This document shows positions 2,014 to 23,676 of a stretch of 64,000 bases of DNA, in pieces. Each line of letters starts with the position of its first letter. Position 1 is the first letter of the stretch. Below the pieces are notes generated by a model. The model was not told where the DNA came from. It was given only the letters and a program-made list of their open reading frames with translations, and made no database searches. A program made the translations under genes and the position numbers. The stretch is from an uncultured Actinomycetota bacterium (GTDB taxonomy: Bacteria > Actinomycetota > Actinomycetes > Mycobacteriales > Jatrophihabitantaceae), in NCBI GenBank assembly GCA_963708625.1, contig CAVPSV010000004.1:321960-385959 (forward strand). The letters run 5' to 3'.

Positions 2014-2868
2014 CTAGGTCGTCAGCGTCGCCGCAACCTGGCGGGTAGGGGCGAGCCAGTCCAGCCACTCGTCCAGACCGTCGCCGCGGGTGGCGGAGAC
2101 CGGCAGGATCTGCGCGCGCCGGTTGACCAGACCCACGTCGTGCTCGAACCGGTCGGCGTCGAAGTCGACGTAGGGCAACAGGTCGATCTTGTTCAGACGA
2201 CCACGATCGAGGCCGCCGCGAAGATGTGCGGGTACTTCAGCGGCTTGTCCGCGCCCTCGGTCACCGACATGATCACGACTCGGGCGTCCTCGCCGAGGTC
2301 GAACAGCGCCGGGCACACCAGGTTGCCGACGTTCTCGATCAGCACCAGGCCGTCGTGCGGGTCGAGCCGGCGCAACGCCGGTCGCACCATCGTCGCGTCG
2401 AGGTGGCACCCGGACCCGGTGTTGACCTGCAGCACCGGCGCACCCGCGGCGGCGATCCGGTCGGCGTCGAACGTCGTCTCCTGATCGCCCTCGATGACGC
2501 GCACCGGCACCGAACCCGCGAGCGCGGTGATCGTGCGCTCCAGCAGCGTCGTCTTGCCCGAGCCGGGTGAACTCATCAGGTTGACGGCACGCACGCCGCG
2601 GCCCGCAACCAGGCTGCGGTTCTGCGCGGCGAGCTCGTCGTTCTTGGCGAGTATCCGGGTCTCGAGCGTCAGCGTCTCGGTGTCGCGGCTGTGCCGTGGG
2701 TGTGGCCGTCGGCGTGCGGCGTGAGTATGCGTGTGCGGCCGTCGTCGGCATGCGCGTGGGTGTGGCCGTCCGCATGTGCGTATGCGTGTGCCCGTCGGCA
2801 TGGCGTGTGCGTACCGGATCGACGATCCGGGCGCCGGCATCGTCGCCACAGCCGCACGTCGCGCACAT
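2014..2868 (-). pseudogene. hypB: hydrogenase nickel-incorporation GTPase HypB, reading frame broken at least twice (frameshifts or sequencing indels)
   Basis: N-terminus [10 protein letters not shown]...HADGHTHTH (frame of ORF 2014..2946). His-rich segment plus GTPase core [11 protein letters not shown]...KPLKYPHIF (ORF 2193..2849). C-terminus [13 protein letters not shown] (back in the first frame). A third frame (2669..2866) also reads His-rich [13 protein letters not shown]. Confidence 0.8.
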
Positions 2869-3203
2869 CAGCGACTCACCTCGACCGACAGAATGCGCAG
2901 TTCCTCGCCGGCCAGCACCCGGACGTCCGAGCTGCCGCACCCGCACAGCAGGATCGGGTCCTCGACGACGAACTCCTCACCGCAGGTGACGCAGTGCGCC
3001 CGCCCGGGTGGCTCGTCGATGACCAGCGTGGCGCCGTCCGCGGCGGTGTCGGCGGCCGCCAACTCGAAGCAGAACCGCAGCGCATCGGCGGACACGCCGG
3101 ACAGCCGCCCGACCTCGAGCCGGACCTCGCGCACGGTGCGCTCGCCGGTGCGCGCGGTGATCGTCTCGATGACGCTCTCCGCGATCGCCAACTCGTGCAC
3201 CCG
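2868..3203 (-). CDS. hypA: hydrogenase maturation nickel metallochaperone HypA
   Basis: V/MHELAIAESVIETI... with CxxC...CxxC zinc motif (CVTCGEEF...CGCGS). GTG start preceded by AAGGTGG. Its stop overlaps the hypB ATG (TGATG). Confidence 0.8.
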   Translation of the reverse strand, partial: RVHELAIAESVIETITARTGERTVREVRLEVGRLSGVSADALRFCFELAAADTAADGATLVIDEPPGRAHCVTCGEEFVVEDPILLCGCGSSDVRVLAGEELRILSVEVSR

Positions 3204-3385
3204 GCCACCACCTTCGCGCTGGATCTGGTCGTAGAACCTCACCATACGAGCGCGCACGCCTGGGTTGGAGAGCCGAAAAACCTCGATTCCGGGAATCACC
3301 GATTCTCTCCAAAACGGTCCGCCGATCGCGCGAACCGTTCTACGGTCAAGTGAACTCTCGGCTGTCGCGCGAAAGGCGATGCCCC

Positions 3386-4460
3386 ATGACGACCGCCACA
3401 GAAGCCCCTGTACTGCACGTTCTCTGGATCAACGCCGGGCTCAGCTGCGACGGCGACTCGGTCTCGCTGACCGCGGCGACCCAGCCCAGCATCGAGGAGA
3501 TCGTGCTCGGCGCGCTGCCGGGCCTGCCGAACATCCAGGTGCACTGGCCGCTCATCGACTTCGAGTGCGGTCCGGAGACCGGCGCCGACAACTTCATCGA
3601 GTGGTGGTGGAAGGCCGACCGCGGCGAACTCGAGCCGTTCGTCCTCGTCGTCGAGGGCTCGATCCCGAACGAGTCGATCAAGTCCGAGGGCTACTGGTGC
3701 GGCTTCGGCAACAACCCGCTCACCGGCCAGCCGGTGACGACCAGCGAATGGCTCGACCAGCTCGCGCCGAAGGCCACCGCCATCGTCGCGGTCGGCACCT
3801 GCGCCACCTACGGCGGCATCCACGCGATGGCCGGCAACCCGACCGGCGCGATGGGCGTGCCCGACTACCTCGGCTGGGACTGGAAGTCCAAGGCGGGCCT
3901 GCCCATCGTCTGCGTGCCCGGCTGCCCGATCCAGCCCGACAACCTGTCCGAGACGCTGCTCTACCTGCTCTACCAGGTCGCCGGCCAGGCGCCGATGATC
4001 CCGCTCGACGACCAGCTGCGCCCGCCCTGGCTGTTCGGCGCCACCGTGCACGAGGGCTGCGACCGCGGCGGCTACTACGAGCAGGGCGAGTTCGCCGACC
4101 GCGTACGGCCAGCCGACCTGCCTGGTGAAGCTCGGCTGCTGGGGACCGGTCGTCAAGTGCAACGTCACCAAACGCGGCTGGATGAACGGCATGGGCGGCT
4201 GCCCGAACGTCGGCGGCATCTGTATCGGCTGCACCATGCCCGGCTTCCCGGACAAGTTCATGCCGTTCATGGACGAGCCACCCGGCGGCAAGGTGTCGGC
4301 GACCGCGAGCGGCACCTACGGCAAGGTGATCCGGCGGCTGCGCAAGGTCACCGCTCGACACGCGTCGAACAAGGAACCGAAGTGGCGCCATCCGGGCCGC
4401 GAGCTGACCACCGGCTACACGCCACAGCAACTGGACTCCAGCAGGGGGAGCACACCGATG
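3386..4460 (+). pseudogene. hhyS: [NiFe]-hydrogenase small subunit, group 1h/5 type (no Tat signal), +1 frameshift near 4100; 3' end uncertain
   Basis: MTTATEAPVLHVLWINAGLSCDGDSV...GTCATYGG...CVPGCPIQPD...GGYYEQGEFA in frame 2. Continues in frame 0 as KLGCWGPVVKCNVTKRGWMNGMGGCPNVGGICIGCTMPGFPDKFMPF. Frame 0 stays open to 4649, implying a further unrecognised shift or stop. Confidence 0.8.
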
Positions 4461-4486
4461 ACCGACGTACAGGACCAGGCCCGAGC

Positions 4487-6269
4487 ATGGCGCAGCACGC
4501 CGACACCGACGTCGTGGAGATGGCGTGGGATCCGATCACCCGCATCGTCGGCAGCCTCGGCATCTACGCCAGCGTCGACTTCAAGCAGAAGATCGTGCGC
4601 GAGTGCCACAGCACGTCGTCGATCTTCCGCGGCTACAGCATCTTCATGAAGGGCAAGGATCCGCGCGACGCGCACTTCATCACCAGCCGCATCTGCGGCA
4701 TCTGCGGCGACAACCACGCCACCTGCTCGGTGTACGCGCAGAACATGGCCTACGGCGTCGCGCCGCCGCACCTCGGCGAATGGATCATCAACTGCGGCGA
4801 GGCCGCCGAGTACATGTTCGACCACAACATCTTCCAGGAGAACCTGGTCGGCGTGGACTACTGCGAACGGATGGTCCGCGAGACCAACCCGGGCGTGCTC
4901 GAACGCGCCAACAGCACCGAGGCGCCGCACGCCGGCGACCACGGCTACAAGACCATCGGCGACATCATGCGCTCGCTCAACCCGATCGAGGGCGACTTCT
5001 ACCGCGAGGCGCTGCAGGTCAGCCGCTACACGCGCGAGATGTTCTGCCTGATGGAGGGCCGCCACGTCCACCCGTCGACGCTCTACCCGGGCGGCGTCGG
5101 CACCGTCGCCGACCGTGCAGCTGTTCACCGACTACTACATCCGGCTGATGCGCTACATCGAGTTCCTGAAGAAGGTCGTGCCGCTGCACGACGACCTGTT
5201 CGACTTCTTCTACGAGGCGCTGCCCGGCTACGAGCACGTCGGCGAGCGGCGCATCCTGCTCGGCTGCTGGGGCAGCCTGAACGACCCGGCGGTCTGCGAC
5301 TTCAAGTACCAGAACATGACCAACTGGGGACGCGCGATGTTCGTCACCCCCGGCGTCGTCGTCGACGGCAAGCTCGTCACCAACGACCTCGTCGACATCA
5401 ACCTGGGCATGCGCATCCTGCTCGGTCACTCGTTCTACGACGACTGGGAGGGCTCGGGCAACGAGGTCTTCGTCGACCGCGACCCGCTCGGCAACCCGGT
5501 CGACATCCGGCACCCGTGGAACCAGCACACGCTGCCCCAGCCCGCAGAAGCGCGACTTCGACAAGCAAGTACAGCTGGACGATGTCGCCGCGCTGGTTCG
5601 ACGGCACCGACCACCTCGCGCTGGACACCGGCGGCGGCCCGCTCGCCCGGCTGTGGTCGACGGCGCTGTCCGGCCTGGTCGACATCGGCGGACTACGTGA
5701 AGGCAACCGGGCACAGCGTGCAAGTTCGAGCTGCCGCGCACGCGCGCTCAAGCCGGCGGCCAGCTACGAGTGGCAGATCCCGCAGTGGAGCAACGCGCTG
5801 GAGCGCAACCGGGCCCGCACCTACTTCCAGCTCTACGCCGCCGTGCGCCGCGCTGCACTTCGTCGAGATGGGACTGGCCGAGGTACGCGCCGGACGCACC
5901 GAGACGTGGACGCCGTTCACCGTCCCGGACGAGGCGATCGCGGTCGGCTTCACCGAGGCGGTGCGCGGCGTGCTCAGCCACCACATGGTGATCCGCGACG
6001 GCAAGATCGCGAACTACCACCCGTACCCGCCGACGCCGTGGAACGGCAGCGTGCGCGACTGCTACGGCACGCCCGGACCCTACGAGGACGCGGTGCAGAA
6101 CACGCCGATCTTCGAGGAGAACCCGCCGGAGCGGTTCAAGGGCATCGACATCATGCGGGCCGTGCGCAGCTTCGACCCGTGCCTGCCGTGCGGCGTGCAC
6201 ATGTACACCGGCAACGGCGGCAAGGTCGAGCAGGTCCACTCGCCGGCCGTCGCCGTCAAGCCGTACTGA
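4487..6269 (+). pseudogene. hhyL: [NiFe]-hydrogenase large subunit, group 1h/5 type, interrupted by about 5 single-nucleotide insertions
   Basis: L1 motif TSRICGICGDNHATCS and C-terminal L2 motif SFDPCLPCGVH. Conserved segments alternate between frames 2, 0 and 1 (shifts near 5107, 5545, 5709, 5731 and ~5850). Examples: PGGVGTVA|TVQLFTDYY, HPWNQHTLPQP|QKRDFDKQ, ATGHSV|KFELPRT|ALKPAASYEWQIPQW. Confidence 0.85.
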
Positions 6270-6270
6270 C

Positions 6271-6850
6271 ATGGACGGCCACGGACGTCCGAGCGAGCTG
6301 CCCGGCCCGCATCGAGGCGCTGCTGGACGAACTGAGCGCAACTCGGCGACCCGGCGGTCAGCGAGCGGGCCGAGGAACTCGTGGCCGCCGTCGTCACTCT
6401 GTACGGCGCCGGACTCGAACGCATCGTCGAGCTGCTCGGCGCAGCGAGCCGGACGGCGCCGAGCTGCTGCGCCGGCTGTGCCGGCGACGACCTGGTCGCG
6501 AACCTGCTGATGCTGCACGAGCTGCACCCCGACGACGTCGGACGCGCGGGTACAGGCCGCGCTGGACAAGGTCCGGCCGTACCTCGGCTCGCACGCCGGC
6601 GGCATCGAGTTTCTCGGCGTCGATGACGACGGCGTGGCGCAGCTGCGGCTGGAGGGCAGCTGCGACGGCTGCGCCGGCTCGACCGCGACCGTGCAGAACG
6701 CGGTCGAGCGGGCCGTGCTCGAGGCGGCCCCGGAAGTGGTCGAGCGTCGAGGTCGAGGGCATGGTCGAGCCGAAGCCGGCGACTGCCGGTCTGCTGCAGA
6801 TCCGGCATGCGCTGCCCGGACGGCGACTGGCTGAGGCGGTCGGCGCGTGA
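6271..6850 (+). pseudogene. NifU C-terminal-domain (Nfu-like) hydrogenase accessory protein, at least 4 frameshifts
   Basis: Segments RIEALLDEL / LGDPAVSERAEELVAAVVTLYGAGLERIVELLG / VQAALDKVRPYLGSHAGGIEFLGVDDDGVAQLRLEGSCDGCAGSTATVQNAVE / VEVEGMVEPKPATAGLLQI. These lie in three different frames. Confidence 0.55.
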
Positions 6851-6885
6851 CGCAGGCCGACCGACCCGTTCGGAGTCCTGCGCCG

Positions 6886-7506
6886 GGTGCTGCAGCCGCG
6901 CGAGCGGCCGCGGCCCGGCGAGGCGTGCGAGATGTGCGGCGAGCCGATCGCCGAGCCGCACAGCCACGTCGCGAGCCTCAGCGAGCGGCGGCTGCTGTGC
7001 ACCTGCCGCGCCTGCTACCTGCTGTTCACCGCCCAGGGCGCCGGCGCGCCGGCGGCTGCGCGCTGTGCCGGAGCGGGTCGTGCTGGCCAGCGACTTCACC
7101 TTCACCCAGGCGCAGTGGGACGACCTGGCGATTCCGGTCGATCTCGTGTTCCTGTTCCAGCAGAGCGACGTCGACGGACGTCGAGGCCCCGACGGCGCTC
7201 GTCGCCTGCTACCCGAGCCCGGCCGGCGCGACCGAGTCCGAGCTCGACCTCGTCGGCCTGGGCCGACATCGTCGCGGACAACCCGACCCTGGCCGACGTC
7301 GAGCCCGACGTCGAGGCGGTGCTGGTCCGCCGCAACGGCGAGCGGCGACTTCACCTGCCTCGTCGTGCCGATCGACGCCTGCTACGAACTCGTCGGCATC
7401 GTGCGCCAGTACTGGTCCGGCTTCCAGGGCGGCGCCGAGGTGTGGCAGCGCATCGACGACTTCTTCGCCCGGCTGCACACTCGAGCCCGCGGCCCGACGG
7501 GGCTGA
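6886..7506 (+). pseudogene. conserved Cys-rich hydrogenase-associated protein, frameshifted
   Basis: GEACEMCGEPIAEPHSHVASLSERRLLCTCRACYLLFT then RAVPERVVLASDFTFTQAQWDDLAIPVDLVFLFQQSDVD... then GDFTCLVVPIDACYELVGIVRQYWSGFQGGAEVWQRIDDFF. Each piece is in a different frame. Confidence 0.45.
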
Positions 7507-7507
7507 C

Positions 7508-9570
7508 ATGCCTGAGCTCGAGTTCGCCTGCACCGGCGCGCACCCGGACCATCGCGCGGCCGCGCCGACGATCTCGCTGCGCCTGCACATCACCGAAACG
7601 ACCGGCGACGACCGGTGCACGCGCTCGTCGCTGCGCACCCAGATCCGCATCGAACCGCGCAAGCGCCGCTACGACGACACCGAAGCCGAGGCGATGCGCG
7701 ACCTGTTCGGCGAGCGGGCACGGTGGGGCGACACGCTCAAGCCGCTTGCAGCTCGCCTTCGTCAACCAGGTGGTGCCGAGCTTCACCGGCGAGACCGACG
7801 ATCGACGTGGCGCTGCCGTGCAGCTACGACTTCGACGTCGCGGCGAACAAGTACCTCTACGCGCTCGACGACGGCGAGATGCCGCTGCTGCTGCTGTTCA
7901 GCGGCACCGTATTCACCGTCGGGCGCGAACGGCTTCTCGGTCGTAGCCGGTGCCCGTGGGACAAGGAGGCCACCTTCCGGCTGCCGGTCGGCGTCTGGAA
8001 GCAGACGATGCAGCTGCACTTCCCCGGCACGCGCCTGGCTGCGGCTGAGCGAGCGAGACCTTCGACGCGTTGCACCGCTACCGCACCGACCAGCAGCTGC
8101 GTCAGCTGGGACGACGCGATCGACCGGCTGCTGAAGGAGGCCGAGCGAGTGAGCGCGCACGCGTGCACGGCACTCGCGGCGCATGCGATCGCCGACACCG
8201 TGCTGTTCGAGGGCTACATGCTCTACCCGTATCGCGCCAACGATCCGAAGAACCGGGTGCGCTGGCAGTTCGGCGTGCTGGCGCCGCCCGCGTTCGCCGC
8301 CGCGCGACCCGTCCGAGCGCGTCGTTCCTGCAGGCCGACTGCCTGCTCGAGGGCGCGATGTCGAGCTCGAGCGTGCAGGTGCGGTTCCTGCACGTGCAGC
8401 GGCGCACGGTCGAGCGTCTCGACGGCGACGGGTTCCGCGACGTCGACTCCCTCGACGTCGGCGACGCCACCTACCTGCCGTGGGACGAGGCGGTCGTCAC
8501 GAATCCGAGACGACGTTCCGGCTCGCCGACCTCGACGCGGCCGAAGCAGACCACCGCGATCGCGCGCCGATGCCGCGGCCGAGATCGAGGCGCTGTCCGA
8601 CGCCGACGGAGCGATCGTCGGCCGGCTGGCCCGTGCGCGCACGCGCCGCTACCGGACGCGCTGTCGTGCGACGGCCGAGCCGCTGCCCGGTCCCTACGGC
8701 GTCCGGCGGCTGCGGCTGCGGCTGGAGAACACCACGCCATGGAGCCGAGCACTGGATCGGGTGCGCCGGACCGTCCCGACGCGCTGCGGCACGCCCTGGT
8801 CGCCGCGCACCTGCTGCTGTCGGCTGCGCGGCGGCGCGTTCATGTCGCTGATCGACCCGCCGGAATGGGCATCCGGCTACGCCGGCGGCCTGCGAGCAGA
8901 TCGGCGCCTTCCCGGTGCTGGCCGGGCCGGCCGGTGACGCGTCGATCTGTGCTCGCGTCGCCGATCATCCTGTACGACCACCCGAGGTCGCGCCGGAAAG
9001 CGCGTCGCAGTTCTGCGACGCGACCGAGATGGACGAGATGCTGACGCTGCGCACGCTGACGCTGACCGACGAGGAGAAGCGACTACGTGCGCGGCAGCGA
9101 CGCCCGCGGCGCGGCACTGGTCGACGAGGTCGACAACCTGCCGCCCGAGCTGATGGACCGCCTGCACGGCGCGATCCGCTCGATGACGCAGCGTGGCCCG
9201 GCCCGCGGCGGCGACGCCGGCGGCCGTTGCGCCGGACGAGACCCCGCCGTTCGCGAATGCTCCGTTCCTGAACGCGGAAGAGGACGCACGCTTCGACCCG
9301 GAGACCGACGTGGTCATGGTGCAGGGCGTGCCGCTGTCGAAGGGCGCGTCGGTGCGGCTGCGCCCGGGTACGCGGCGCACCGACGCGCAGGACATGTTCC
9401 TGGACGGCCGCAGCGCCACCGTCGAGGCCGTGCTGTTCGACGTCGACGGCGCTACCGCACCTCGCGGTCACGCTGGACGACCTGGTCGAGCTGTCCGAAC
9501 TGGGCTACAACCCGCACGGCCGCTTCCTGTACTTCGCGCCGGACGAGGTCGAGCCGATCGAAGGTGGACG
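7508..9570 (+). pseudogene. one or more conserved hydrogenase-cluster proteins of unknown function, heavily fragmented by frameshifts
   Basis: Frame-hopping conserved-looking segments: MPELEFACTGAHPDH...IRIEPRKRRYDDTEAEAMRDLFGERARWGDTLKPL; LPCSYDFDVAANKYLYALDDGEMPLLLLFSGTVF; RCPWDKEATFRLPVGVWKQTMQLHFPG; LFEGYMLYPYRANDPKNRVRWQFGVLAPP; TEMDEMLTLRTLTLTDEEKRL; ALVDEVDNLPPELMDRLHGAI; VAVTLDDLVELSELGYNPHGRFLYFAPDEVEPIEGG. Gene boundaries not resolvable by eye. Confidence 0.35.
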
Positions 9571-9571
9571 C

Positions 9572-10106
9572 ATGATGCGCATCCTGGTCGCCGGCCTCGG
9601 CAACATCTTCGAAGGCGACGACGGCTTCGGCGTCGAGGTCGTGCAGCGACTGCGCACAGCGGTCGTGGCCCGAGGGCGTCGAGGTGCGCGACTTCGGCAT
9701 CCGCGGCGTGCACCTGGCCTATCAACTGCTCGAGCCCTACGACCTCGTCGTCATCGTCGATGCGGTCGCGCGCGGCGAAGCGCCGGGCACCCTCTACGTC
9801 ATCGAGCACGGCCCGGACCATGACGCCGCCGAACCGGCCGACGACGCGGCGCTGATGGACGCACACGACCTGGCCCCGGACGGCGTGCTCGCGCTCGTCC
9901 CCCGCCTCGGTGGCACGCTGGGCCGCGTCGTCGTGATCGGGTGCGAGCCCGAATCGATCACGCCGGACATGGCGCTTTCACCGGCAGTCGCGGGTAGCGT
10001 CGACAAGGCGGCCCAACTCGTGACCGACCTCGTCACCGACCTCGTCACCGACTCGTCACCGACCTCGTCACCGACCTCGTCACCGACCTCGTCACCGACC
10101 TTGTGA
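9572..10106 (+). pseudogene. hupD: hydrogenase maturation endopeptidase (HupD/HyaD/HycI family), frameshift near 9655 and inside the C-terminal repeat
   Basis: MMRILVAGLGNIFEGDDGFGVEVVQRL then (other frame) VEVRDFGIRGVHLAYQLLEPYDLVVIVDAVARGEAPGTLYVIEHGP...VVVIGCEPE. The C-terminus runs into an (LVTD)n / (SSPT)n repeat. Confidence 0.7.
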
Positions 10107-10110
10107 CGGA
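10017..10110 (+). repeat. tandem 12-nt repeat (ctcgtcaccgac) x~7 with one 11-nt unit, at the 3' end of hupD
   Basis: Direct reading gives ctcgtgaccgacctcgtcaccgacctcgtcaccgaCTCGTCACCGAcctcgtcaccgacc.... It is translated LVTDLVTDLVTD then, after the short unit, SSPTSSPTSSPT. Confidence 0.8.
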
Positions 10111-10303
10111 CCCGACGACCAACATCGTGCAGAGCGCACGGCCGGGTGCCATGCCCGGCACCGAGATACGAGTGGGAGGCGGTTGACCATGGGTCGATTG
10201 CTGGCGTACCGGATGATGCTCGGTGCCGCGGCCAGGATGTCCGTGTCGTTCTCCGACATCCGCCGTTACTTCCGAATGCGCAAGATGTGAGGGTGAGCGC
10301 GTC

Positions 10304-10534
10304 ATGTGTCTAGGCATTCCCGGACGAATCGTCGAGGTCCTCGACGGCGGCGACGTCGCGCTCGTCGACGTCGCCGGTGTCGTGCGCGAGATCAACCTGG
10401 GCATCTTGGACGGGCCGTACGACCCTGGCTCCTACATCCTGATCCACAGCGGCTTCGCGCTGGAGCACATGTCGGCCGAGCAGGCCGCGGACGCGCTGCA
10501 GGTGTTCAGCGACGGATCGATGACCTCGGGCTGA
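10304..10534 (+). CDS. hypC: hydrogenase maturation factor HypC
   Basis: MCLGIPGRIVEVLDGGDVALVDVAGVVREINLGIL...YILIHSGFALEHM, 76 aa, intact. Confidence 0.85.
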   Translation: MCLGIPGRIVEVLDGGDVALVDVAGVVREINLGILDGPYDPGSYILIHSGFALEHMSAEQAADALQVFSDGSMTSG

Positions 10535-10901
10535 AACTCCGATCCGGCACGTCGGTGCCGAGGATCAGCGACGACGCCGCGCGCTCGGGCGCGATGGCTT
10601 CGGGCACCGGCTCGGCAGCTGATTCACGCCGGTGAGGCTTCAACGGCGTCGCCGCGTCGTCCGGCTCCCACCGGTGCGCGTCGTCGGTCAGTCCGAGCAG
10701 GTAGGTGACGGTGCAATCGAGCGCCGTGGCCAGCTCGGGCAGCTTCGCCACATCCAGTCCGGTGCCGTGTTCGAGACTCGACAGCGCGCGGTTGGTGGTG
10801 TGCAGCCCGCACCGCCCGAGCCGGGTCACCACCTGCTTCTGGGTCAGCCCGAGGTCGTCGCGCCGCTGCCGCAGCCGCTGCGTGATCAACAGATGGCGCA
10901 T
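10506..10901 (-). CDS. XRE-family helix-turn-helix transcriptional regulator
   Basis: MRHLLITQRLRQRRDDLGLTQKQVVTRLG...LSSLEHG is an HTH_3 motif. The 3' end overlaps hypC convergently. Confidence 0.55.
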   Translation of the reverse strand: MRHLLITQRLRQRRDDLGLTQKQVVTRLGRCGLHTTNRALSSLEHGTGLDVAKLPELATALDCTVTYLLGLTDDAHRWEPDDAATPLKPHRRESAAEPVPEAIAPERAASSLILGTDVPDRSFSPRSSIRR

Positions 10902-10927
10902 CGAGATATCGACGTCCGAGGCGATGG

Positions 10928-11218
10928 TCACGAGTCACGCTCCCGCGCTTGACTGAGCGACGACATCTCCGCCAGCGGATAGATGTCGTAGCGAGCGAAA
11001 TTGAAGATCGGTGCCCGGGCCAGCAGCCGTTCGAACTCCTCGTGCGAGTCCACGTCGTAGATCCAGGCGCCGCCGTGCGCGCCGACGATGTGATAGCGGG
11101 CGTCCACCTTGCCCTCTTCCTCGAGGGTGGAGCCGTACTGCGCCATCCGCCCTACCGCCTGGGCCATCTCCCGGGACAGCAGGTTGAGCTCCATCCGCCA
11201 CAACACCAGGAACTTCAT
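10928..11218 (-). CDS. muconolactone-isomerase-like small protein
   Basis: 96 aa, MKFLVLWRMELNLLSREMAQAVGRMAQYG..., ferredoxin-like alpha+beta pattern typical of the MLI family. Confidence 0.35.
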   Translation of the reverse strand: MKFLVLWRMELNLLSREMAQAVGRMAQYGSTLEEEGKVDARYHIVGAHGGAWIYDVDSHEEFERLLARAPIFNFARYDIYPLAEMSSLSQARERDS

Positions 11219-11955
11219 GACGCCAACCGTTCATTGGTCACGGCGAGCTGCCAGCCGGTGCACTCACGCAGCCGGTGCAGGTTCTCCTCACAGAGGCGTT
11301 CGCAGACGGAGTCCCAGTGCAACGCGAGCCAGTCGCCCTCGACCGGACTCGCGACGAAGCCGATACCGTCGATCGCGCGGCGAACTCGCTCGGGTTCGGG
11401 CTCGGCAAGGTGCAGTGCTCGTCCGTCCCAGCGCAGGCGTTGCGACGACACGACGACGTGGTCGCCGTCGGTGTCCACGACCTGGCCCCAGCGAATGCGG
11501 CAGTTGTCGAGGACGTGCAGGGCGTGGGCCGGTAGCTCGCCGAGCAGGCGCGTCCACGGGTAGACGCCGAAGACGTGGAACCCGTGCGTGGGCGCGGCCT
11601 CCGGCAGCAAGTCCGCAGTGAGATGCCCCCAGTAGCGCCCGGCCTCCGCGCCGATGCGGTCCAGCAGCTTCACCCCGAAGTCGGCGCGATCGACCGCATC
11701 GAGCAGCGGACCACCGGTCCAGTACGCGCGCATCACCCGCTCGTCGAGTGGATCGGCGACGCCGGCCATCTCGGCAAGCAACGCCGCATACGGCCACGCG
11801 CCGGAGAACCGGCGCGCGATCGCGTGCACATCGGCGTTCGTCTCGCCGGAAACGCCCAGATCGAACAGCGCCTGCGTCTCGGCCGGCCCGCAGTAGCCCA
11901 GCTCGTTCGGTGCATAGGCGTACCGAGCGAAAAGCACCAGTCCGGGCGCGGACAT
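11215..11955 (-). CDS. conserved hypothetical protein
   Basis: 246-aa intact ORF, 4-nt overlap with the upstream gene. No motif recognised. Confidence 0.45.
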   Translation of the reverse strand: MSAPGLVLFARYAYAPNELGYCGPAETQALFDLGVSGETNADVHAIARRFSGAWPYAALLAEMAGVADPLDERVMRAYWTGGPLLDAVDRADFGVKLLDRIGAEAGRYWGHLTADLLPEAAPTHGFHVFGVYPWTRLLGELPAHALHVLDNCRIRWGQVVDTDGDHVVVSSQRLRWDGRALHLAEPEPERVRRAIDGIGFVASPVEGDWLALHWDSVCERLCEENLHRLRECTGWQLAVTNERLAS

Positions 11956-11963
11956 GGTCTGGC

Positions 11964-13098
11964 TCAGGTCCGCGCTGACTGACCGACGAGTTCCGCCGTC
12001 TCACGATGCAGCCGGCCGAAGTTGTAGTACGCCGCGCAGGCGCCTTCGGGCGACACCATGCAGGTGCCGATCGGTGTCTCGGGCGTGCATGCGGTGCCGA
12101 ACACCTTGCACTCCCACGGCTTGATCACGCCCTTGAGCACCTCACCGCACTGGCACGCCTTCGGGTCGGCCACCCGGATGCCGGGCATCTCGTACCGCAA
12201 TTCGGCGTCGAACTCCGAGTACTTGTCGTTCAGCTTGAGCGCGCTCTGGCTGATGAATCCCAGACCCCGCCATTCGAAATGCGGACGCAGCTCGAACACC
12301 TCTGCCAGTAGCGCGATGGCCTGCGGATTGCCTTCATCGCGCACGACCCGGCTGTACTGGTTCTCGACCTCGCAGCGCCCCTCGCGAATCTGCGCCAGCA
12401 GCATGTGCACCGACTGCAGGATGTCGAGCGGTTCGAAGCCGGCCACCACGATCGGCTTCCCGTACACCTCGGGCACGAACCGGTACGGCCGGTTGCCCAC
12501 GACGGTCGAGACATGGCCAGGGCCGAGGAAGCCGGACAGGCGCAGGTCGGGCGAGTCGAGGATGGCCTTGATCGGCGGCACGATCGTGACGTGGTTGCAG
12601 AACACGGTGAAGTTCGTGACGCCGAGGTCCTTGGCGCGGACCAGCGTCACCGCGGTCGACGGCGCAGTCGTCTCGAAGCCGACCGCGAAGAACACGACCT
12701 GCTTGTCCGGGTTCTCGACCGCGATGCGCAGCGCGTCCAGCGGCGAGTACACGAAGCGGACGTCCGCGCCGCGCGCCTTCGCCTCGAGCAGGCTGCCCTT
12801 GCTGCCGGGTACGCGCATCATGTCGCCGAAGGAGGTGAAGATGACGTCGGGCCGTTCGGCCAGCCACATCGCGTCATCGACGCGGCCCATCGGGATCACG
12901 CAGACCGGGCAGCCCGGCCCGTGCACCAGCTCGATGTTGGGCGGCAGGATGTGCTCGATGCCGTGCCGGTAGATCGTGTGCGTGTGCCCCCCACACACCT
13001 CCATGAACTTGAACTCGTCGTCGCGCGGCCAGCTCCTTGATGGACGCTACCAGGGCACGGGCGGCAGCCGGATCGCGGAATTCGTCGACGAACTTCAT
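11964..13098 (-). pseudogene. hypD: hydrogenase maturation factor HypD, +1 frameshift near 13010-13040
   Basis: N-terminus MKFVDEFRDPAAARALVASIKEL (frame A). Then (frame B) MEVCGGHTHTIYRHG...GPGCPVCV...CNHVT, 346 aa reading to the stop. Confidence 0.8.
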
Positions 13099-13109
13099 AG
13101 TTTTGCTCC

Positions 13110-13393
13110 CTAGACGATCGCGGTGGAGTTGAACGCGGACAGTTCGTCGGTGTAGCTCTGACCCATCTGTTTCACGGCCTCGAGCGTGAGGTCGGCTTCG
13201 TGCTGATCGATCTTTGCCATTGCGAAGCCGACGTGCACGAGCACCCAATCGCCGGCGTATCAGGTTGTCCTTCGCCAGCAGGCGCACGCTGATCGTCCGC
13301 TTGATGCCGTTCACGTCCACCTTCGCCAGGTGGTTGTCGGCGTCGACGATCTCGACCACCTGGCCGGGAATCCCGAGACACATGTCAGGTCCT
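13110..13393 (-). pseudogene. hypC: second HypC-family maturation factor, single-nt insertion near 13210
   Basis: MCLGIPGQVVEIVDADNHLAKVDVNGIKRTISVRLLAKDNL then (other frame) [32 protein letters not shown]... Confidence 0.65.
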
Positions 13394-13411
13394 CTCCTCG
13401 TGCATCGACGT

Positions 13412-14520
13412 TCAGCAGATCCGCGGCAGCGGGTCACCGACGAGCATGTCGACGATCCGGCTGCCGCCGAACGGTGTGCGCAGGGCAACGATGCCCTCGG
13501 GTTCGGCGACGATCTCGCCGATGACAGCCGCGTTCTGGCCGAGCGGATGCGGCGCGCAACGCGGCGATCGCCGCCTGCGCCTCGTCCGGCGGTACGACCG
13601 CGACGAACTTGCCCTCGTTGGCGACGTACACCGGGTCGATGCCGAGCAGGTCGCACGCGCCCTGGACCATCGGCGCCACCGGGAGCAGCTCCTCGTCGAG
13701 GATGACCGCGACCGATGCGTCCTGGGCCAGCTCGTTGCAGATCGTGCCGAGTCCGCCGCGCGTCGGGTCGCGCATCCAGCGCGTGTTCGGGGCGGCGGCG
13801 AGCAACGCCTCGACCATCGTGTGCACCGCGGCCGTGTCCGACTCGATCTCCGCTTCGATGTCCAGGTCACCGCGGGCCATCATCACCGACATGCCGTGGT
13901 CGCCGAGCGTCCCGGACAGCACCACCCGGTCGCCCGGACGCACCAGGTGCGCACCCAGTTCCCGGCCGGCCGGCATCGACGCCGATGCCCGTGGTGGTGA
14001 TGTAGAGCCCGTCCGCGGCGCCCTTCGGCACGACCTTGGTGTCGCCGGTGACGAGCAGCACGCCGGCGTCGGCCGCGGCTGCGGCCATGTCGGCGACGAT
14101 CTCCTTGAGTTCGGCGATCGCGAATCCCTCGGCGATGACGAAGGCTGCGGACAGCCACTGCGGCTTCGCGCCGCTCACCGCCAGGTCGTTCACGGTGCCG
14201 TGCACGGCGAGCTGGCCGATCGAGCCGCCGGGGAACCGGCGTGGCGAGACCACGAACGAGTCGGTGCTGAACGCCAGCCGCTCACCGGAGGGCAGCGTGA
14301 GCAGCGCGCCGTCACCGAGCTGTTCCAGCTCGGGGTTGCGGAACGCTTCGAGGAACACCGCATCGACGAGAGCCGCGGACGACTTGCCGCCCGCGCCGTG
14401 CGCGAGCGTGATCACTTCATCGATCAGCCGGGGCCGCCGCTTGCGGAAGTTCTGGATCTTCTCCAGCACGCGGTCCTCACGCGAGACGACGTCCTCGACG
14501 GGAATGATCTGACCGGTCAT
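13412..14520 (-). pseudogene. hypE: hydrogenase maturation factor HypE, at least 2 frameshifts
   Basis: MTGQIIPVED...ITLAHGAGGKSS... (13867..14520 frame). MSVMMARGDLDIEAEIESDTAAVH...GGLGTICNELA (13434..13976 frame). AVIGEIVAEPEGIVALRTPFGGSRIVDMLVGDPLPRIC (13412..13870 frame). Confidence 0.8.
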
Positions 14521-15203
14521 GCTGCGCCTCCTACGGCGCTCGACGCCACGTCGTTCGCCGATGTAGCGAGCGCGCGCTGCGTCGCGGCCCAGAGTTGGTA
14601 GCCGAGCAGCGCCTGGCTCTCCTGGATGCGGTGGATGCTCTGCGAAGCGACCACGAAACAGTGATCCACCGCGTCCGATTCGGCCATTTCGCCGCCGCGG
14701 TAGCCGGCGAAGCCGATGGTCATCAGGCCGCGTCGATTCGCTTCCCGCAGCGCGTTCATCAGATCGGCGGAGTTGCCGCTCGTCGAAAACGCGACCGCGA
14801 TGTCGCGCCCAGAGGCGTGCGCGATGATCTGGCGGGAGAAGACCAGCTCGAAACCCACGTCGTTACCGAGCGCGGTGACCACTGCCTGATCGGCGGCCAG
14901 GTTCAGCGCGGGCAACGGGCGACCACTGACCGGCTGGGCGAACAGTGCGGCGAATGTCGCCGCGTCGGTAGAGCTGCCGCCGTTGCCGAAGACGTAGAGG
15001 CGACCGCCGTGGGCGAATCGATCGGCCATCTCGCTCGCGGCGGTCAGCACCCGTTCCGCGCACGCGGCCAGAGTGGCCTGTTGCAAACCGGCGCTCTCCC
15101 GCGCCTTCTCCCGGGCTGAGGCCGCCAGATCGGCGAGCAGCGACCCCGAATCGCGTTCGTCGCCGTCGATGAAGGGATAGAGAAAACCGGTCTGTTCGCT
15201 CAT
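14517..15203 (-). CDS. SIS-domain protein (GmhA/DiaA-like phosphosugar isomerase fold)
   Basis: RLYVFGNGGSSTDAATFAALF...AVAFSTSGNS. 228 aa from MSEQTGF. ATGA overlap with hypE. Confidence 0.7.
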   Translation of the reverse strand: MSEQTGFLYPFIDGDERDSGSLLADLAASAREKARESAGLQQATLAACAERVLTAASEMADRFAHGGRLYVFGNGGSSTDAATFAALFAQPVSGRPLPALNLAADQAVVTALGNDVGFELVFSRQIIAHASGRDIAVAFSTSGNSADLMNALREANRRGLMTIGFAGYRGGEMAESDAVDHCFVVASQSIHRIQESQALLGYQLWAATQRALATSANDVASSAVGGAA

Positions 15204-15965
15204 CGCGGCCCCCCGATCCGAGTCAGGGCCGAGCCGGCGTGCACCAGCAGCAGATCCCCTGGATCGACGTCGCCGATCAGTGTGGTGTCGACGTGTTCGT
15301 CGCCCTGCGCGGTGCGCACCAGCGCGGCGCCCAACGGTCCGTCGCGGCCCACGATCACTTCCGCCGGGACGACCTTCGTCGCTGCAGGTGATGCAGACCT
15401 CGTCGGTGCAGTCGGAGTCACGCTCGACGAGCAATCCGGGATGCTCGAAACACACGTGCGTCAGCTCCCACAGCAGGTGATACATCAGTACGAAGCGGCC
15501 GGTCGCGGGCGCCAGCGGGTTGGCGTCGTCGATCCACAGCACCTGGTCGGCCGCGCCGGCCGGCGGGCGTTCGCCCGAGCCGATCCAGACGCTCAGCGCC
15601 CCCCAGGCGGGCGTGCGGCGCATCAGGTCCTGCACCGCCCGGTCGCCGGCACCGGCCACTGCGATGACGATGTCGCCAGGACGGACCGAGACTCGCGCCT
15701 GAGCGACGACGTCCCCCGAGGTGAGCGCGAATGCCGGCAGCGCCCGTTTGCCCACGATGACGGGGTGGACGAACTCGACGGCCATGTGGTGCGCGTGTGG
15801 CTCCCACTGCGGCGCGACGCACCACATGGTGGCGCCGGCGTGATAGCGGCGTGCGAGCGAGAGCGCGGCCGCGGCCAGGTCCTCGGCCAGGCCACGGTCC
15901 AGGATGTCCGGGGTGATGCCGGAAGAGACGTCCAGCTCGGGCGTCGTTACGAAATCGACGGTCAC
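15200..15965 (-). pseudogene. hydrogenase-associated protein with C-terminal HupF/HypC-like domain, frameshift near 15420-15450
   Basis: The N-terminal ~190 aa (MTVDFVTTPELDV...HVCFEHPGLL...DEVCITCSDEG) read through into the SIS gene. The real C-terminus is in another frame (15200..15421): AEVIVGRDGPLGAALVRTAQGDEHVDTTLIGDVDPGDLLLVHAGSAL, with the stop just before the SIS start. Confidence 0.45.
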
Positions 15966-18360
15966 GGTGCTACCCCCTGTTGGCGTGCATAGCCGACGGC
16001 ACCGATCACGGCTTGGCCGAGCGCGAGACCCCCGTCGTTGGGCGGGACGAGGCGGTGGGTCAGGACTCGCAGGCCGCTGCCCTCGAGGCGTCGGCGGCAG
16101 AGGTCCAGCAGCAGGACGTTCTGGAAGACGCCGCCGGTCAGCCCGACCAAATCTTGATCATGTGAATCGCATACCCGGATCGCGACCGCGGTAACCGCGT
16201 CGGCAACGGCTACGTGGAACCAGTGCGCAAGCGTGGCCGTGTCCACGCCCGCACGCAGGCCCGCCACCAGGCCGCGAACGACCGGTGCGTAGTCCAGCCG
16301 TCCGTCCTCGATCGCGAACGCCCACGGCGGCACGGCGCTGGCCGGGTCCGCGACGGCCGGGTCCGCGCCGGCGGCTGCACTCGCAGCCAAGATCTCGAGT
16401 TCGATCGCGGCCTGCGCCTCGTAGCCGATTCGCTGGCGCACGCCGAGGATCGAGGCGACGGCGTCGAAGAGCCTGCCCATGCTCGAGCACGGCACCGTCG
16501 CACGCCCGGACGTCAGCTGCGACCGGACCGCGGCGAGTTCGCGCGGCTCGCAGGCGGCAACCGGCGCCACGTCGTCATCCCACGCGACATCGCTGGCGGC
16601 GAGGTAGGCCAGCGCGGCTCGACAGGGGTTGCGCACCGCCGCGTCCCCACCGGGCAGATCCACGGTGCGCAGGTGGCCGACCCGCTCGTAGCTGGTCACG
16701 TCCGCGGACACCTGCAGGAACTCGCCACCCCAGATGGTGCCGTCGTCCCCGTAGCCGGTGCCGTCGAACGCGACGCCCAGGGCCGATACCCCGAGCAGGT
16801 TGTGTTCGGCCAGCAGGGACACCACATGTGCGTGATGGTGCTGGACGAGTCGCAGCTGCGGCTCGCCCGGCCGACCGGTGTGGCGCTGCGCCCACTCGCG
16901 GGTCAGGTACGCGGGGTGCGCGTCCACCGCGACGATCTCGGGAGCGAGGCGGTGCAGCGTGGTCAGCTGATCCACCGCGCGCTCGAAGGCGCGCAGCGTG
17001 TCGAGGCTGCCCATGTCCCCGACGTGCGCCGAGCAGAACGCGTTCGTCGCGTCCACGAGGCAGAAGGTGTTCTTCAGCTCGCCACCGACGGCAAGCGTCG
17101 GGGGCAGCGCGTGGCCCAATGGCACCGGCAACGGCGCCAAGCCACGCGAGCGGCGGATCGGCAACTCGCGGCCATCGAAGACACGCACCACGCTGTCGTC
17201 GCACGGCACGTGAATGCCACGGTCGTGGGTGAGTACGGCGTCGGCGAGCGAGGGCAATCGCCGCTGCGCGTCGATGTCGTCGAAGCACAGCGGCTCGTCG
17301 CTGACGTTCGCACTCGTCAGCACGAGCATGCCGGCGCCGGTGCGCCGGCGTCGGGCACCGGCGCGAGCAACAGATGGTGGATCGGGCTGTAGGCGAGCAT
17401 CACCCCGAGCAGCGGGTTGCCCGGCGCCACACTGTCCGCGACCGGCGCGTCCGGCCGGCGGCGGAGCAGGACTATCGGCCGGGCGCGGCTGGTCAGCACC
17501 TGAGCTTCGGCCTCGTCGATGACAGCGAGGCGGTGCGCGGTGGGCAGGTCACGCACAAGCAGCGCGAACGGCTTCTGGTCGCGCGACTTCCGCTCCCGCA
17601 GTCGTGCCACCGCAGCCGGGTCGTCCGCGCGGCAGGCGAGGTGATACCCACCGATACCCTTGACGGCGACGATCTGCCCGTCGGCCAGCGCGTGCTGAGC
17701 GTGGGCCAACGCGGAGTCGCCGACGGCTGCCGTCGCGCCGTCGCGCTCGAAACGAAGTACCGGCCCGCAGTTCGGGCAGGCGACGGGCTGGGCATGGAAG
17801 CGGCGATCGGCCGGATTCGCGTACTCGCGCGCGCAGTCGGCACACATGGCAAAGTCCGCCATGGTTGTGGCGGGCCGGTCGTAGGGCAGATCGCGAATGA
17901 TCGTCAGCCGCGGTCCGCAATCCGTGCAGGTGATGAAGGGATGGCGGTAACGGCGGTCGGTCGGGTCGAACAACTCGGCGAGGCAGTTGTCGCAGGTGGC
18001 CACGTCGGGCGGGATGAGCGTTCGCGCGCCCTCGGCCGCACGGCTGGCGACGATGCGGAACCCGCTGTCTTCGACCAGCGGTAGCGGCGTGCTGGTGACG
18101 GAGATGACGAACGCCATCGGCGGCGCATCGATGCGAACTCGGCGCTCGAACTCCGCCAGTAGCCCGGCCGGACCCTGCACCTCAGCGAAGACGGCCTCCG
18201 CGTCGTTGCCGACGAAGCCGCTGAGGCCTAGTTCGGTGGCCAACCGGTGGACGAATGGGCGGAAACCGACGCCCTGGACGACACCGGTTATCGAAAGCCG
18301 CGCCCGTTCTCGCGCTGCAGCATCCGGGCGGAAGGCGAGCGAGCGGGCCGTCGCGGTCAT
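15962..18360 (-). pseudogene. hypF: carbamoyltransferase HypF, one frameshift near 17320
   Basis: N-terminal part (17317..18360 frame): acylphosphatase VQGVGFRPFV, Zn fingers CDNCLAELFDP...CTDCGPR and CADCAREY...CPNCGP. C-terminal part (15962..17329 frame): YrdC/Kae1-like region ...VFQNVLLL.... Confidence 0.85.
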
Positions 18361-18516
18361 GTCGGCCGTTGGGCGTTGTGGTCTTGCACCGCGTCCGTGT
18401 GTTTTACGGATTCGGTGATAGGGAGAATCCCGCCGGTGCGGCAAATAGCCACTCACCCAACATAGGTAGACCGATCGTTCTCTGTCTAGACTCAATTTCA
18501 GGATCAGGAGTGCAGA

Positions 18517-19155
18517 TTGGCCAGCCAGCCGGAGACGAATGCGAGCGATTCGTCCGCGCGAGAGCGAATCCTCGATACGGCCTACGACCTGTTCGCGCGC
18601 CGCGGTATTCGCGATGTCGGGGTCGATGAGATCGTCGAGCGCGCCGGCATTGCGCGGGCGACGCTGTACCGCCATTTCAAGTCGAAGGACGAACTCGTCC
18701 TGGCGTTCCTGAGGCGACGCGAAGAACGCTGGACGTTCGGTTCGGTCGAAGCCGAGGCGCGCCGACGCGGCAAGACTCCGGAGGGGCGGCTCCTGGCGAT
18801 CTTCGACGTCTTCGACGAGTGGTTTCACCGGGGCGACTTCGAAGCCTGCTCGTTCGTGAACGTGCTGTTCGAAATGCGTCCGAGCCACCCGCTCGGGCAG
18901 GCGAGCATCCAACACCTGGCGAACATCCGAGGCATGGTCGAGCGGCTGGCCACCGAAGCCGGGCTGGCCGACGTCACCGAGTTCAGCAGGTCGTGGCACA
19001 TCCTGATGAAGGGCTCGATCGTCGCTGCGACCGAAGGTGACCTCCGGGCCGCGCGTCGCGCGCAACAGATGGCGAAGACGCTGATCGCGAAACACGGCGG
19101 CCATCTCCCCGAGCAGCCCGCCCAGCTACCCGTAAGTACCGTGACGCATAGATGA
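18517..19155 (+). CDS. TetR-family transcriptional regulator, divergent from hypF
   Basis: ERILDTAYDLFARRGIRDVGVDEIVERAGIARATLYRHFKSKDELV is a TetR_N HTH. Confidence 0.8.
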   Translation: MASQPETNASDSSARERILDTAYDLFARRGIRDVGVDEIVERAGIARATLYRHFKSKDELVLAFLRRREERWTFGSVEAEARRRGKTPEGRLLAIFDVFDEWFHRGDFEACSFVNVLFEMRPSHPLGQASIQHLANIRGMVERLATEAGLADVTEFSRSWHILMKGSIVAATEGDLRAARRAQQMAKTLIAKHGGHLPEQPAQLPVSTVTHR

Positions 19156-19828: not shown

Positions 19829-20494
19829 TCAGTCGGACGGGATCATCGACCGCAGGCCGTCCACATCGTCGATGATGATCTGCCGCCGTCCCAGCGAGAT
19901 GACACCGCGGCTCACCAGTCGCTGCAGCACCTGATTCACCGTCGGCCGGGCCGCGCCGGTCATCATCGCCAGATCACCCTGCGACAGCGGGATCACCGCG
20001 GCGCCCGGTGTGCCGCCGTAGATGTCGGCCAGGGCGATCAGCCGCCGGTAGACGCGGCGGTCCACGCCGAAGTACAGCGCCTCCAGCAGCTGCCGACTCA
20101 GATCCTCCACGCGCTGGGCGAGTGCGGCGACCACCAGCCCGTCGATCTCCGGGTGCGAGTTGCGCAGCGTCGCGAAGGCCGTGCCGGCCAGCGCCAACGT
20201 CTGGCCGGGGGTCAATGCCGCGACGGTGGCGCTGCGCCGCGGCGTCTGACCCGACTGCAGCAGCGCGAGCTCACCGAAGAAGTCGCCGCCGGAGAGCACG
20301 TTGACGGTCAGCCGGTCACCGTTGGCCGCGGTGACGTGCACCGCGAACAGGCCACTGTCGATCAGGTGCATGCTGTCGGCGGGATCACCCTCGTGAAACA
20401 CCACCTCGCCGCGCGCGAACGTGCGCCGGCGTGCAGAGCTCAGCACCTCTTCGCGCGCCTGCGCCGGCAGCGTGTCCAGCAGCGGCCACTGCAT
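19829..20494 (-). CDS. Crp/Fnr-family cNMP-binding transcriptional regulator
   Basis: cNMP-binding fold (FFGELALL...RSATVAALT) plus C-terminal HTH (SQGDLAMMTGAARPTVNQVLQRL). Its ATG overlaps the stop of the upstream cyclase gene (TGATG). Confidence 0.75.
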   Translation of the reverse strand: MQWPLLDTLPAQAREEVLSSARRRTFARGEVVFHEGDPADSMHLIDSGLFAVHVTAANGDRLTVNVLSGGDFFGELALLQSGQTPRRSATVAALTPGQTLALAGTAFATLRNSHPEIDGLVVAALAQRVEDLSRQLLEALYFGVDRRVYRRLIALADIYGGTPGAAVIPLSQGDLAMMTGAARPTVNQVLQRLVSRGVISLGRRQIIIDDVDGLRSMIPSD

Positions 20495-23400: not shown

Positions 23401-23676
23401 CGAGGCGAACACGCACATGGCCTCGTCGCCACGCAGTTCGAACACCGATCCGCTGAATTGCGCCACTACGTCGCGGACCATGTCGGCGAACCTGGCGGTG
23501 AGCCGGGCGGCCGCCTCGTCGCCGTTGTTCTGGGTGAATGTCGTGTAACCGCGGATATCGGCAAAGAGAAATGTCAGGAGTTCAGACGATTCCGCTCCCG
23601 GTTTCCCGGTTTCGGGTTCGTTCGGCGGGCCGTTGGCGGCGCCGTCCGGCGACATGGCGCCGAGTATGGACCACAT
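20494..23676 (-). CDS. class III adenylate/guanylate cyclase - TM - YVTN/NHL beta-propeller - family-5 solute-binding-protein domain fusion
   Basis: N-terminus LLTFLFADIRGYTTF...RGDEAMCVFASP (cyclase catalytic core). One TM helix (AVAIGAAVGIAVAGTAVGLVL). About 7 repeats of the type VSVGxxPxxxAxxxxxxWVxNxxxxTVSRID. C-terminal SBP_bac_5-like region (PGYRPYCPYTLRPG...). Confidence 0.75.
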   Translation of the reverse strand: MWSILGAMSPDGAANGPPNEPETGKPGAESSELLTFLFADIRGYTTFTQNNGDEAAARLTARFADMVRDVVAQFSGSVFELRGDEAMCVFASPRLSLRAAVALQQRFVTETVTDPSLPLTVGIGVDVGEAVRSADGYRGGALNLAARLCGLAKAGETLASHEVTHLARTIDGIRYVAGGTVDVKGLRDAVRMVRVVPDGHDPARQMSALIAAARPLPRTGDRRPRWWRGRRAVAIGAAVGIAVAGTAVGLVLTSGTSHDLHRVAENAVGVIDPKNGHIVAQLGVDLSPTAAAAAPGAIWTANTGANTISRIDTGSKRVTNTVSVGQAPSAVAFGFDSVWVANSGSGTVSRIDPTTYGVQTVVVGTSPAGLAVGDGSVWVTNTADGTVSRIDPGDDTVTATIGVGDGPDGIAVAHSVWIVNATSNTVSVIDPASGTVTQTVHVGNDPRDVAVSGSSAWVTNNLDATVTRIDVGTGSVAETVPVAEEPTKIAVLGTALWVASEGSRSLREFDTKSSRPVRTVPTGATPTALVSSGGRLWVTTTIDPARHVGGSITVDGQDPGSVDPDYFGTPWTLWLINDSFDALVGFRHANGAEGSELVPDLATSIPEPTNGGRTYTFQLRGSVRWSTGAVVSVADVQRGLERIVASGLPGLPQEIVGASACTTQRCTISGVTADAGADTVAITLNRPSGDFLDLLAAAVATPAATPLADQGAKPIPATGPYAITRDDGKQIVLSRNPSFHEWSPAAQPAGYPDSITWNVDANGADTKDAVNRVAAGSADWADARGAAPLAQLQARFGVRLYLTPTEAAHGVALNTRIAPFNDVRVRRALAYAIDRQAVADDWFTPAIPTCQLLPPNFPGYRPYCPYTLRPGTAGAWSAPDFPTAERLVDQSHTKGMAVDVVTGPRTAAGMQDVVGALDQLGYRAKLVVYPKDDYFSYIGNSANKVQASFAGWVAEPPNPEDFIVPQFECSGFVPNSDASLNPSEFCDPALDALTARAEQEQASSPAAAAATWAQLDRQLIDQAAWVGLVTPSWVDVLSPRVHNYTRSSVLGVFFDQMWVR

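Follow-up and report, generated by a model that had tools for sequence, protein, structure and literature searches.

In reductive evolution, for example in Mycobacterium leprae, the pseudogenes of a functional gene cluster each carry several frameshifts. The decay of bacterial pseudogenes is deletion-biased. Frameshifted gene calls also occur in otherwise high-quality metagenome-assembled genomes (MAGs), and the residual errors typical of nanopore consensus sequences are homopolymer indels (Sereika et al. 2022, PMC9262707). Another kind of artefact was described in a long-read assembly of Trypanosoma brucei, where collapsed alleles led to misalignment and to INDEL errors truncating ORFs; nearby allelic variants shifted the alignment between the alleles, and phasing restored full-length genes (Cosentino, Brink and Siegel 2021, PMC8445201). 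As for the genes considered here, the large subunits of group 1h/5 [NiFe]-hydrogenases typically carry the motifs TSRICGICGDNH (L1) and SFDPCLPCGVH (L2), and a criterion of this group is a partner small subunit lacking a twin-arginine signal peptide (PMC5364354).

The window, that is, the whole analysed stretch of 64,000 nucleotides, contains a locus of this type in which the large subunit gene hhyL is frameshifted at several points. Judging from the sequence, these frameshifts are very probably consensus errors caused by collapsed alleles, rather than marks of a biological pseudogene.

The hydrogenase operon

The small subunit gene hhyS is located directly upstream of hhyL, and its stop codon overlaps the hhyL ATG. 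The genes of the operon and of its surroundings are as follows.

2017..3299, minus strand: hypB (split at ~2196) and intact hypA, divergent from hhyS
3386..4461, plus strand: hhyS, small subunit, with frame-breaking extra bases at ~4099 and ~4435 and an in-frame 3-nt extra at 4356
4458..6269, plus strand: hhyL, group 1h/5 [NiFe]-hydrogenase large subunit (frameshift-aware alignment, multiple alignment, PF00374, 5AA5_C)
~6271-6850, plus strand: NifU-like gene, in the operon
~6847-7505, plus strand: DUF5947 gene, in the operon
~7508-8151, plus strand: DUF6084 gene, in the operon
~8148-9577, plus strand: gene of a 467-aa protein, in the operon
~9572-10106, plus strand: HycI/HupD-type protease gene, in the operon
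10050..12500: clean block with a DUF6893 small ORF, hypC, an HTH gene, a muconolactone-isomerase-like gene, a DUF6390 gene and the 3' part of hypD
12500..19104, minus strand: N-terminus of hypD, hypC, hypE, SIS-domain gene, HypC-like gene, hypF

The resulting order is hypB-hypA, then hhyS-hhyL-NifU-DUF5947-DUF6084-467aa-protease-DUF6893-hypC, and after this hypC, HTH-MIase-DUF6390-hypD-hypC-hypE-SIS-HypC-like-hypF. The intact loci L081 and L084-L089 share this order.

The window fragment 3401-10033 was aligned by MAFFT with nine independently assembled intact loci (ten sequences in total). Nine bases of hhyL are private to the window in this alignment; the gene from which they have been removed is referred to below as corrected. 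The preliminary description placed its product in group 5 (now 1h), and this assignment is well supported by several features of the sequence. Both Ni-Fe ligand motifs are intact, as had been claimed:

4682..4717, plus strand: L1 motif TSRICGICGDNH, exact match
6168..6200, plus strand: L2 motif SFDPCLPCGVH, exact match

The N-terminus of HhyS (MTTATEAPVLHVLW...; it begins MTTATEAPVLHVLWINAG) has no RR motif and no twin-arginine signal. HhyL matches the Pfam family PF00374 (NiFeSe_Hases) with 199.9 bits. The best PDB match is 5AA5 chain C, HofG of the actinobacterial-type hydrogenase of Ralstonia eutropha (E = 0), where residues 2-569 of corrected HhyL align without a break to residues 13-579 of the chain; the next-best matches are to hydrogenases of other groups (E ~1e-41). 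Corrected HhyL shares with group 1h/5 large subunits such as HofG an alignment without breaks, the L1 and L2 motifs and the PF00374 domain. A search of NCBIfam found no model specific to group 1h, and every match was under its cut-off, so the assignment to the group is based on the two motifs together with the PDB and Pfam matches.

Corrected HhyL has 95% identity over 100% of the length to homologues of 600 amino acids. The closest relatives are metagenomic and MAG proteins from Pseudonocardiales and Actinomycetota. Among 5.8 billion proteins, no intact sequence had more than 95% amino acid identity to it.

Frame breaks in hhyL

The preliminary description reported a frameshifted [NiFe]-hydrogenase large subunit gene in this region, and the pieces that it quoted are read in the three-frame translation. 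In the latter (positions 4487-6300), the frame encoding the large subunit steps by +1 base seven times. It was also proposed that deletion of five single bases would restore the gene. Restoration by deletion is indeed possible, but five bases are not enough, as the frame is broken by eight events, seven single extra bases and one 2-base extra. As assembled, hhyL has 1812 nt; without the nine private bases it has 1803 nt, that is, 600 codons and a stop. Even the shorter ORF of 591 aa, which starts at ATG 4487 and has its stop at 6267-6269, requires seven single-base removals.

The native start of hhyL is the ATG at 4458, preceded at a distance of 7 nt by the ribosome-binding site GGGGGAG. All close HhyL homologues start with MTD..., nine residues upstream of the methionine encoded by ATG 4487. 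The 2-base extra at 4475-4476 shifts the frame behind the native start, and therefore the ORF seems to start at ATG 4487. Hence the corrected protein is 600 aa long, and not ~590 aa as was suggested.

A custom frameshift-aware protein-to-DNA alignment with five intact HhyL homologues as references placed the single extra bases at ~5111, 5541-47, 5563-69, 5693, 5709-27, 5743 and 5843. All eight events are listed below, with the pairs of alleles that their letters combine; all are on the plus strand.

4475..4476: 2-base extra after the native ATG (alignments, corrected translation)
5109..5111: extra base 1, GTCGCCGACC; union of alleles of the GTC-GCC-ACC and GTG-CCG-ACC type
5540..5547: extra base 2, CAGC; union of the CAC (His) and CAG (Gln) alleles
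5563..5569 (~5565): extra base 3, AAGCAAG; CAG and AAG alleles giving CAAG
5693..5694: extra base 4, CTAC; union of the CAC (His) and TAC/TAT (Tyr) alleles
5720..5727: extra base 5, GTGCAAG; union of the ...CAG and ...AAG alleles (giving CAAG)
5741..5743 (~5742): extra base 6, ACGCGCG
5841..5846 (~5844): extra base 7, GCCGCCGTGCGCC; variable A/C/V codon, GCC and GCG giving GCCG

Three of the five junctions initially proposed, gccGaccgtg, cccGcag and gtgCgccgcg, are found at 5109-5111, 5540-5547 and 5843-5846, respectively. The other two, gtgCaag and acgCgcg, exist as well, but at ~5720-5724 and ~5742-5743, about 12 nt away from the positions given for them (5709 and 5731). Two junctions were missed. 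The one at ~5565 joins ...QKRDFD(K/N) to KYSWTMSPRW, and the one at ~5694 joins ...LVDIGG to (H/Y)VKATGHSV. Corrected HhyL aligns continuously across every junction, with uniform identity, both to the 600-aa homologues and to 5AA5_C, as had been expected of a restored gene. Thus hhyL as assembled differs from its group 1h/5 relatives by nine extra bases in eight places, whereas the corrected gene shows no such difference.

Frame breaks in other genes

Breaks were seen in every operon gene, both by tblastn and by the frameshift-aware alignment. In the alignment of ten loci, the fragment 3401-10033 has 50 private insertions (41 of 1 nt, eight of 2 nt and one of 3 nt) and four private deletions, each of 1 nt. 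The nine other loci have almost no private indels. In the seven operon genes (3.4-10.0 kb) there are 53 frame-breaking events, 49 insertions and four deletions; the five genes downstream of hhyL (6271..10106) account for 44 private indels of a length not divisible by three. In the more distant Microflora Danica loci, counts of private indels are obscured by alignment noise in the variable genes; the only clear case is L008, a Microflora Danica MAG, whose hhyS is broken by three private single-base insertions.

Further splits were identified with a reference-free coding-frame HMM and Pfam. The CobW/HypB domain of hypB is truncated, covering 150 of the 180 positions of the model. The region 12500..19104 contains five further private single-base insertions, at 13027, 13256, 13550, 13977 and 15369. 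By gene, the splits fall into the N-terminus of hypD (13027), hypC (13256), hypE (13550 and 13977) and hypF (~17335). The damage thus goes beyond hhyL, to all seven operon genes and to hypB, hypC, hypD, hypE and hypF. Far from the operon, a response regulator gene (REC and GerE parts) is split at ~59620, and a DUF2231-Rieske gene at ~39853 and ~39503. Most other genes at 17-64 kb cover their Pfam models in full.

One could imagine that the frameshifts are bypassed during expression, by programmed ribosomal frameshifting or by transcriptional slippage. The perfect conservation of the corrected frame is the sole point that fits this, and the possibility is extremely remote. Eight shifts would be needed for hhyL and 53 for the operon as a whole; no slippery motif or homopolymer is common to the sites; and in all nine related loci the same proteins are read from one continuous frame.

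The distribution of the breaks does resemble that expected from genuine pseudogenisation, that is, from a lineage that has lost the oxidation of atmospheric hydrogen and whose hhy and hyp genes decay by real frameshifts. They cluster in hypB, hhyS, hhyL, the five accessory genes, hypC, hypD, hypE and hypF, and the three genes at 10.5-12.0 kb that do not belong to the hyp set are unbroken; the few other split genes of the window would also be seen in a pseudogene-rich genome. On the other hand, the spectrum is the opposite of the deletion bias of natural decay, with 49 insertions against four deletions.

Selection on the corrected genes

Relaxed selection was sought in the corrected genes as stop codons, changes in conserved columns and the distribution of substitutions over codon positions, and was not found. 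The seven corrected operon genes, 6.7 kb in total, contain no in-frame stops, and this includes the five genes downstream of hhyL. Corrected HhyL does not depart from the consensus at any of the 383 columns with a conservation of at least 98% among 119 homologues. It has two singleton residues, in the same range as the intact controls. The accumulation of eight frameshifts by ordinary mutation would be accompanied by dozens of substitutions, of which many would affect conserved columns. Thus the corrected genes look fully selected.

This is difficult to reconcile with gene decay. Near-invariant columns are unchanged despite eight frameshifts, and most substitutions relative to the related contig L081 affect third codon positions. 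The window does share with the pseudogenes of the M. leprae type the presence of several frameshifts per gene throughout a cluster. However, it has no stops and no relaxed substitution, its indels are biased towards insertions, and these occur only at polymorphic sites. Pseudogenisation therefore seems highly improbable.

Origin of the extra bases

In 38 of the 41 single-base insertions (93%), the inserted base is one that natural sequences have as an alternative allele in the alignment column next to it. If the insertions are placed at random (2000 trials), the expected count is 10.6 ± 2.8, with a maximum of 21. Random insertions into real alleles, followed by realignment, produced counts of 10/36, 10/39 and 7/35 (~25%). 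Inspection by eye leads to the same result: every extra base looks like two SNP alleles kept side by side.

Among the inserted bases, C (31) and G (24) prevail over A (5) and T (4), and an identical base is seldom adjacent. Only eight of the 41 single-base insertions (20%) adjoin an identical base, as compared to 21.9 ± 3.0 under random placement and 16/36, 20/39 and 16/35 for the random insertions into real alleles after realignment. The indel spectrum of natural mutation, with its deletion bias and homopolymer slippage, was sought among the private indels and was not found. Both observations again contradict pseudogenisation, as slippage would have placed the insertions in homopolymers, and as in almost all single-base insertions the added base is the other allele of a polymorphic site next to it.

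To our knowledge, no mutational process adds the base of the other allele at polymorphic sites. Single-nucleotide additions of the NHEJ type, transcription-associated mutagenesis and programmed frameshifting were considered, and none of them predicts the insertion of alternative alleles at such sites. On the contrary, such insertions are exactly what is produced when a consensus is derived from mixed diverged templates. Mixing of templates thus presumably lies behind the extra bases.

The frameshifts could also be random sequencing or consensus indel errors, without mixed alleles, in a part of low coverage within a long-read or older assembly. Frameshifting indels are known in long-read consensus sequences (PMC9262707), and the sporadic split genes elsewhere in the window, the response regulator gene at ~59620 and the Rieske gene at ~39503, would be explained in this way. 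However, random error predicts that about 25% of the insertions are compatible with the union of two alleles and about 50% are adjacent to a homopolymer, whereas 93% and 20%, respectively, were observed.

Comparison with an intact contig

The metagenomic contig L081 (JGI) encodes a DUF6390 protein identical to that of the window. Its genes for HypD (377 aa), HypC, the protease, the 467-aa protein and the DUF6084, DUF5947 and NifU proteins are intact, and so is hhyL up to the end of the contig, which cuts it off. At 10.0-12.5 kb, three short, independent contigs, L081 and the Logan contigs L082 and L083, have 99.6% identity to the window, with no indels. In contrast, the region 4680-10040 has 4-12% mismatches to L081, as well as 72 insertions and 11 deletions. 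The identity jumps to ~100% at ~10,040, and the indels stop at the same point: they are dense in the blocks that are 4-12% diverged from L081, and there are none at 10.05-12.5 kb.

The mismatches to L081 are found at the third codon position in 58% of cases, and about half of them are synonymous. Such mismatches indicate true allelic divergence from L081 and not random error. An alternation of stretches identical to L081 with diverged ones was considered and rejected, as the differences are evenly spaced. Thus the window represents either an allele that differs throughout or a mixture at the level of single sites, rather than a patchwork of long blocks. The coincidence of the indels with the diverged blocks, and their abrupt end where the identity to L081 returns to 99.6%, provide the second argument against random error, which we consider a very unlikely source of the frameshifts.

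The lesions of the window were sought in L081, which comes from the same population, and are absent there. As the operon allele of L081 is ~6-7% different, this contig demonstrates an intact operon in the same population, and not the intactness of the exact allele of the window.

A likely scenario

Collapsed alleles are thus suggested by two groups of observations. Firstly, the extra bases are private to the window, and they repeat the alternative allele of the polymorphic sites at which they occur. Secondly, the affected blocks are those diverged from L081, and the corrected genes look selected. The source of the contig is probably a long-read metagenome assembly (MAG). The ORFs of the window, among them the broken hhyL piece of 384 aa (5115-6269), are recorded in NCBI and ENA on one contig of 1,911,136 bp, which agrees with the pattern of the Microflora Danica MAGs and their very long contigs; an identical protein is also annotated in a MAG of Jatrophihabitantaceae. 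The locus would have been present in at least two diverged copies, whose reads were collapsed into a single contig, the merging having occurred presumably during assembly or polishing. The copies may have come from co-occurring strains or, less likely, from paralogues, and would differ by several per cent. At some of the differing sites the consensus would have kept both bases, resulting in an extra base outside homopolymers and thus in a frame break.

This is similar to the situation in T. brucei, as in the window, too, the extra bases mark variant sites and match the other allele. However, in T. brucei these were two alleles of a diploid eukaryote, whereas here they are presumed to come from co-occurring strains or paralogues. 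The nanopore homopolymer indels similarly produce frameshifts in the called genes of MAGs that are otherwise of high quality. They differ from the errors of the window, where only 8/41 touch an identical base, insertions dominate and the diverged blocks alone are affected. The extra bases outside homopolymers are thus a less common kind of artefact than the typical nanopore errors.

Implications

Since the frameshifts are probable consensus errors, the apparent restorable pseudogene is best explained as something other than a biological feature. Taken at face value, the window would imply the loss of atmospheric hydrogen oxidation in a soil actinobacterium, with pseudogene calls for about 15 genes. 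The main value of the case is the caution that it suggests against accepting such calls. It also provides a diagnostic of the artefact that does not require reads: private, insertion-biased bases outside homopolymers that repeat the alternative allele of the adjacent site, in genes that are otherwise perfectly conserved.

The DNA likely encodes a normal hhySL operon with maturation genes, for a group 1h/5 uptake [NiFe]-hydrogenase predicted to have high affinity. The host would be an actinobacterium similar to Jatrophihabitantaceae, in which the frameshifts are most likely absent and the hydrogenase operon is almost certainly intact. If the extra bases were real after all, for which we see very little chance, a strain of Jatrophihabitantaceae would have inactivated its entire high-affinity hydrogenase system very recently, by a novel mutational process that only inserts bases, at differences between recombining alleles. 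A milder reading is more plausible, namely that nearly identical co-existing strains, with a divergence of 0.4% in the flanking region, appear to carry alleles of the hhy operon that are ~6-8% apart. If this is true, the hhy operon would be a hotspot of allele exchange.

Frameshifts outside the hydrogenase cluster and in another genome

At a location distant from the hydrogenase cluster, a gene encoding a NarL/LuxR-type response regulator (59421-60072, minus strand) is split by a frameshift. Its two domains are encoded as follows.

59620-60072, minus strand: receiver domain, in its own frame
59421-59619, minus strand: GerE HTH domain, in a frame different from that of the receiver domain

The DUF2231-Rieske gene (39297-40204, minus strand) has two apparent breaks. 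Three frames are involved: one matches DUF2231 (model positions 1-78 of 139), another Rieske positions 2-55 and a third Rieske positions 54-87. The coding-frame HMM indicates possible extra frame changes at about 42818 in a patatin-like gene (42387-43262, minus strand) and at about 45050 in a PLD-like gene (43912-45512, minus strand); Pfam is indecisive on both.

The same kind of damage as in the window is present in a different MAG. The hhyS gene of the Microflora Danica MAG MFD02840.bin.1.91 (locus L008) carries three private insertions of one base each, at 9228, 9454 and 9600, which break it up into four ORFs.

Comparison with a contig of the same population

Similarity between the window and L081, a JGI metagenome contig of the same population, changes abruptly at 10040 and at about 12500. 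It is 88-96% across 4680-10040 and 99.6-100% across 10050-12500, and drops again past 12500. These switches may reflect either exchange of hhy/hyp alleles among otherwise near-identical strains, or chimeric assembly, of the window or of L081.

The window contains an 11-nt tandem duplication at 10041-10051, CTCGTCACCGA, that is absent from L081. The duplication, whose length is not a multiple of three, falls in the part of the HycI-type protease gene that encodes its repeat-rich C-terminal tail (…TDLVTDLVTDSSPTSSPTSSPTSSPT). This could be true repeat variation or a further assembly error.

Other genes of the window

An intact ORF of 1060 amino acids (20494-23676, minus strand) has an unusual domain architecture, in which an adenylate/guanylate cyclase domain and a family-5 solute-binding domain occur together with beta-propeller repeats (YNCE/DUF6923-like).

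A gene of the actinobacterial type encoding DUF222 and an HNH endonuclease was found at 61574-63049 (minus strand). Since a second member of its 90% cluster (P0154, 390 amino acids) resides on the same 1.9-Mb source contig, the DUF222-HNH element is probably repeated within the genome.
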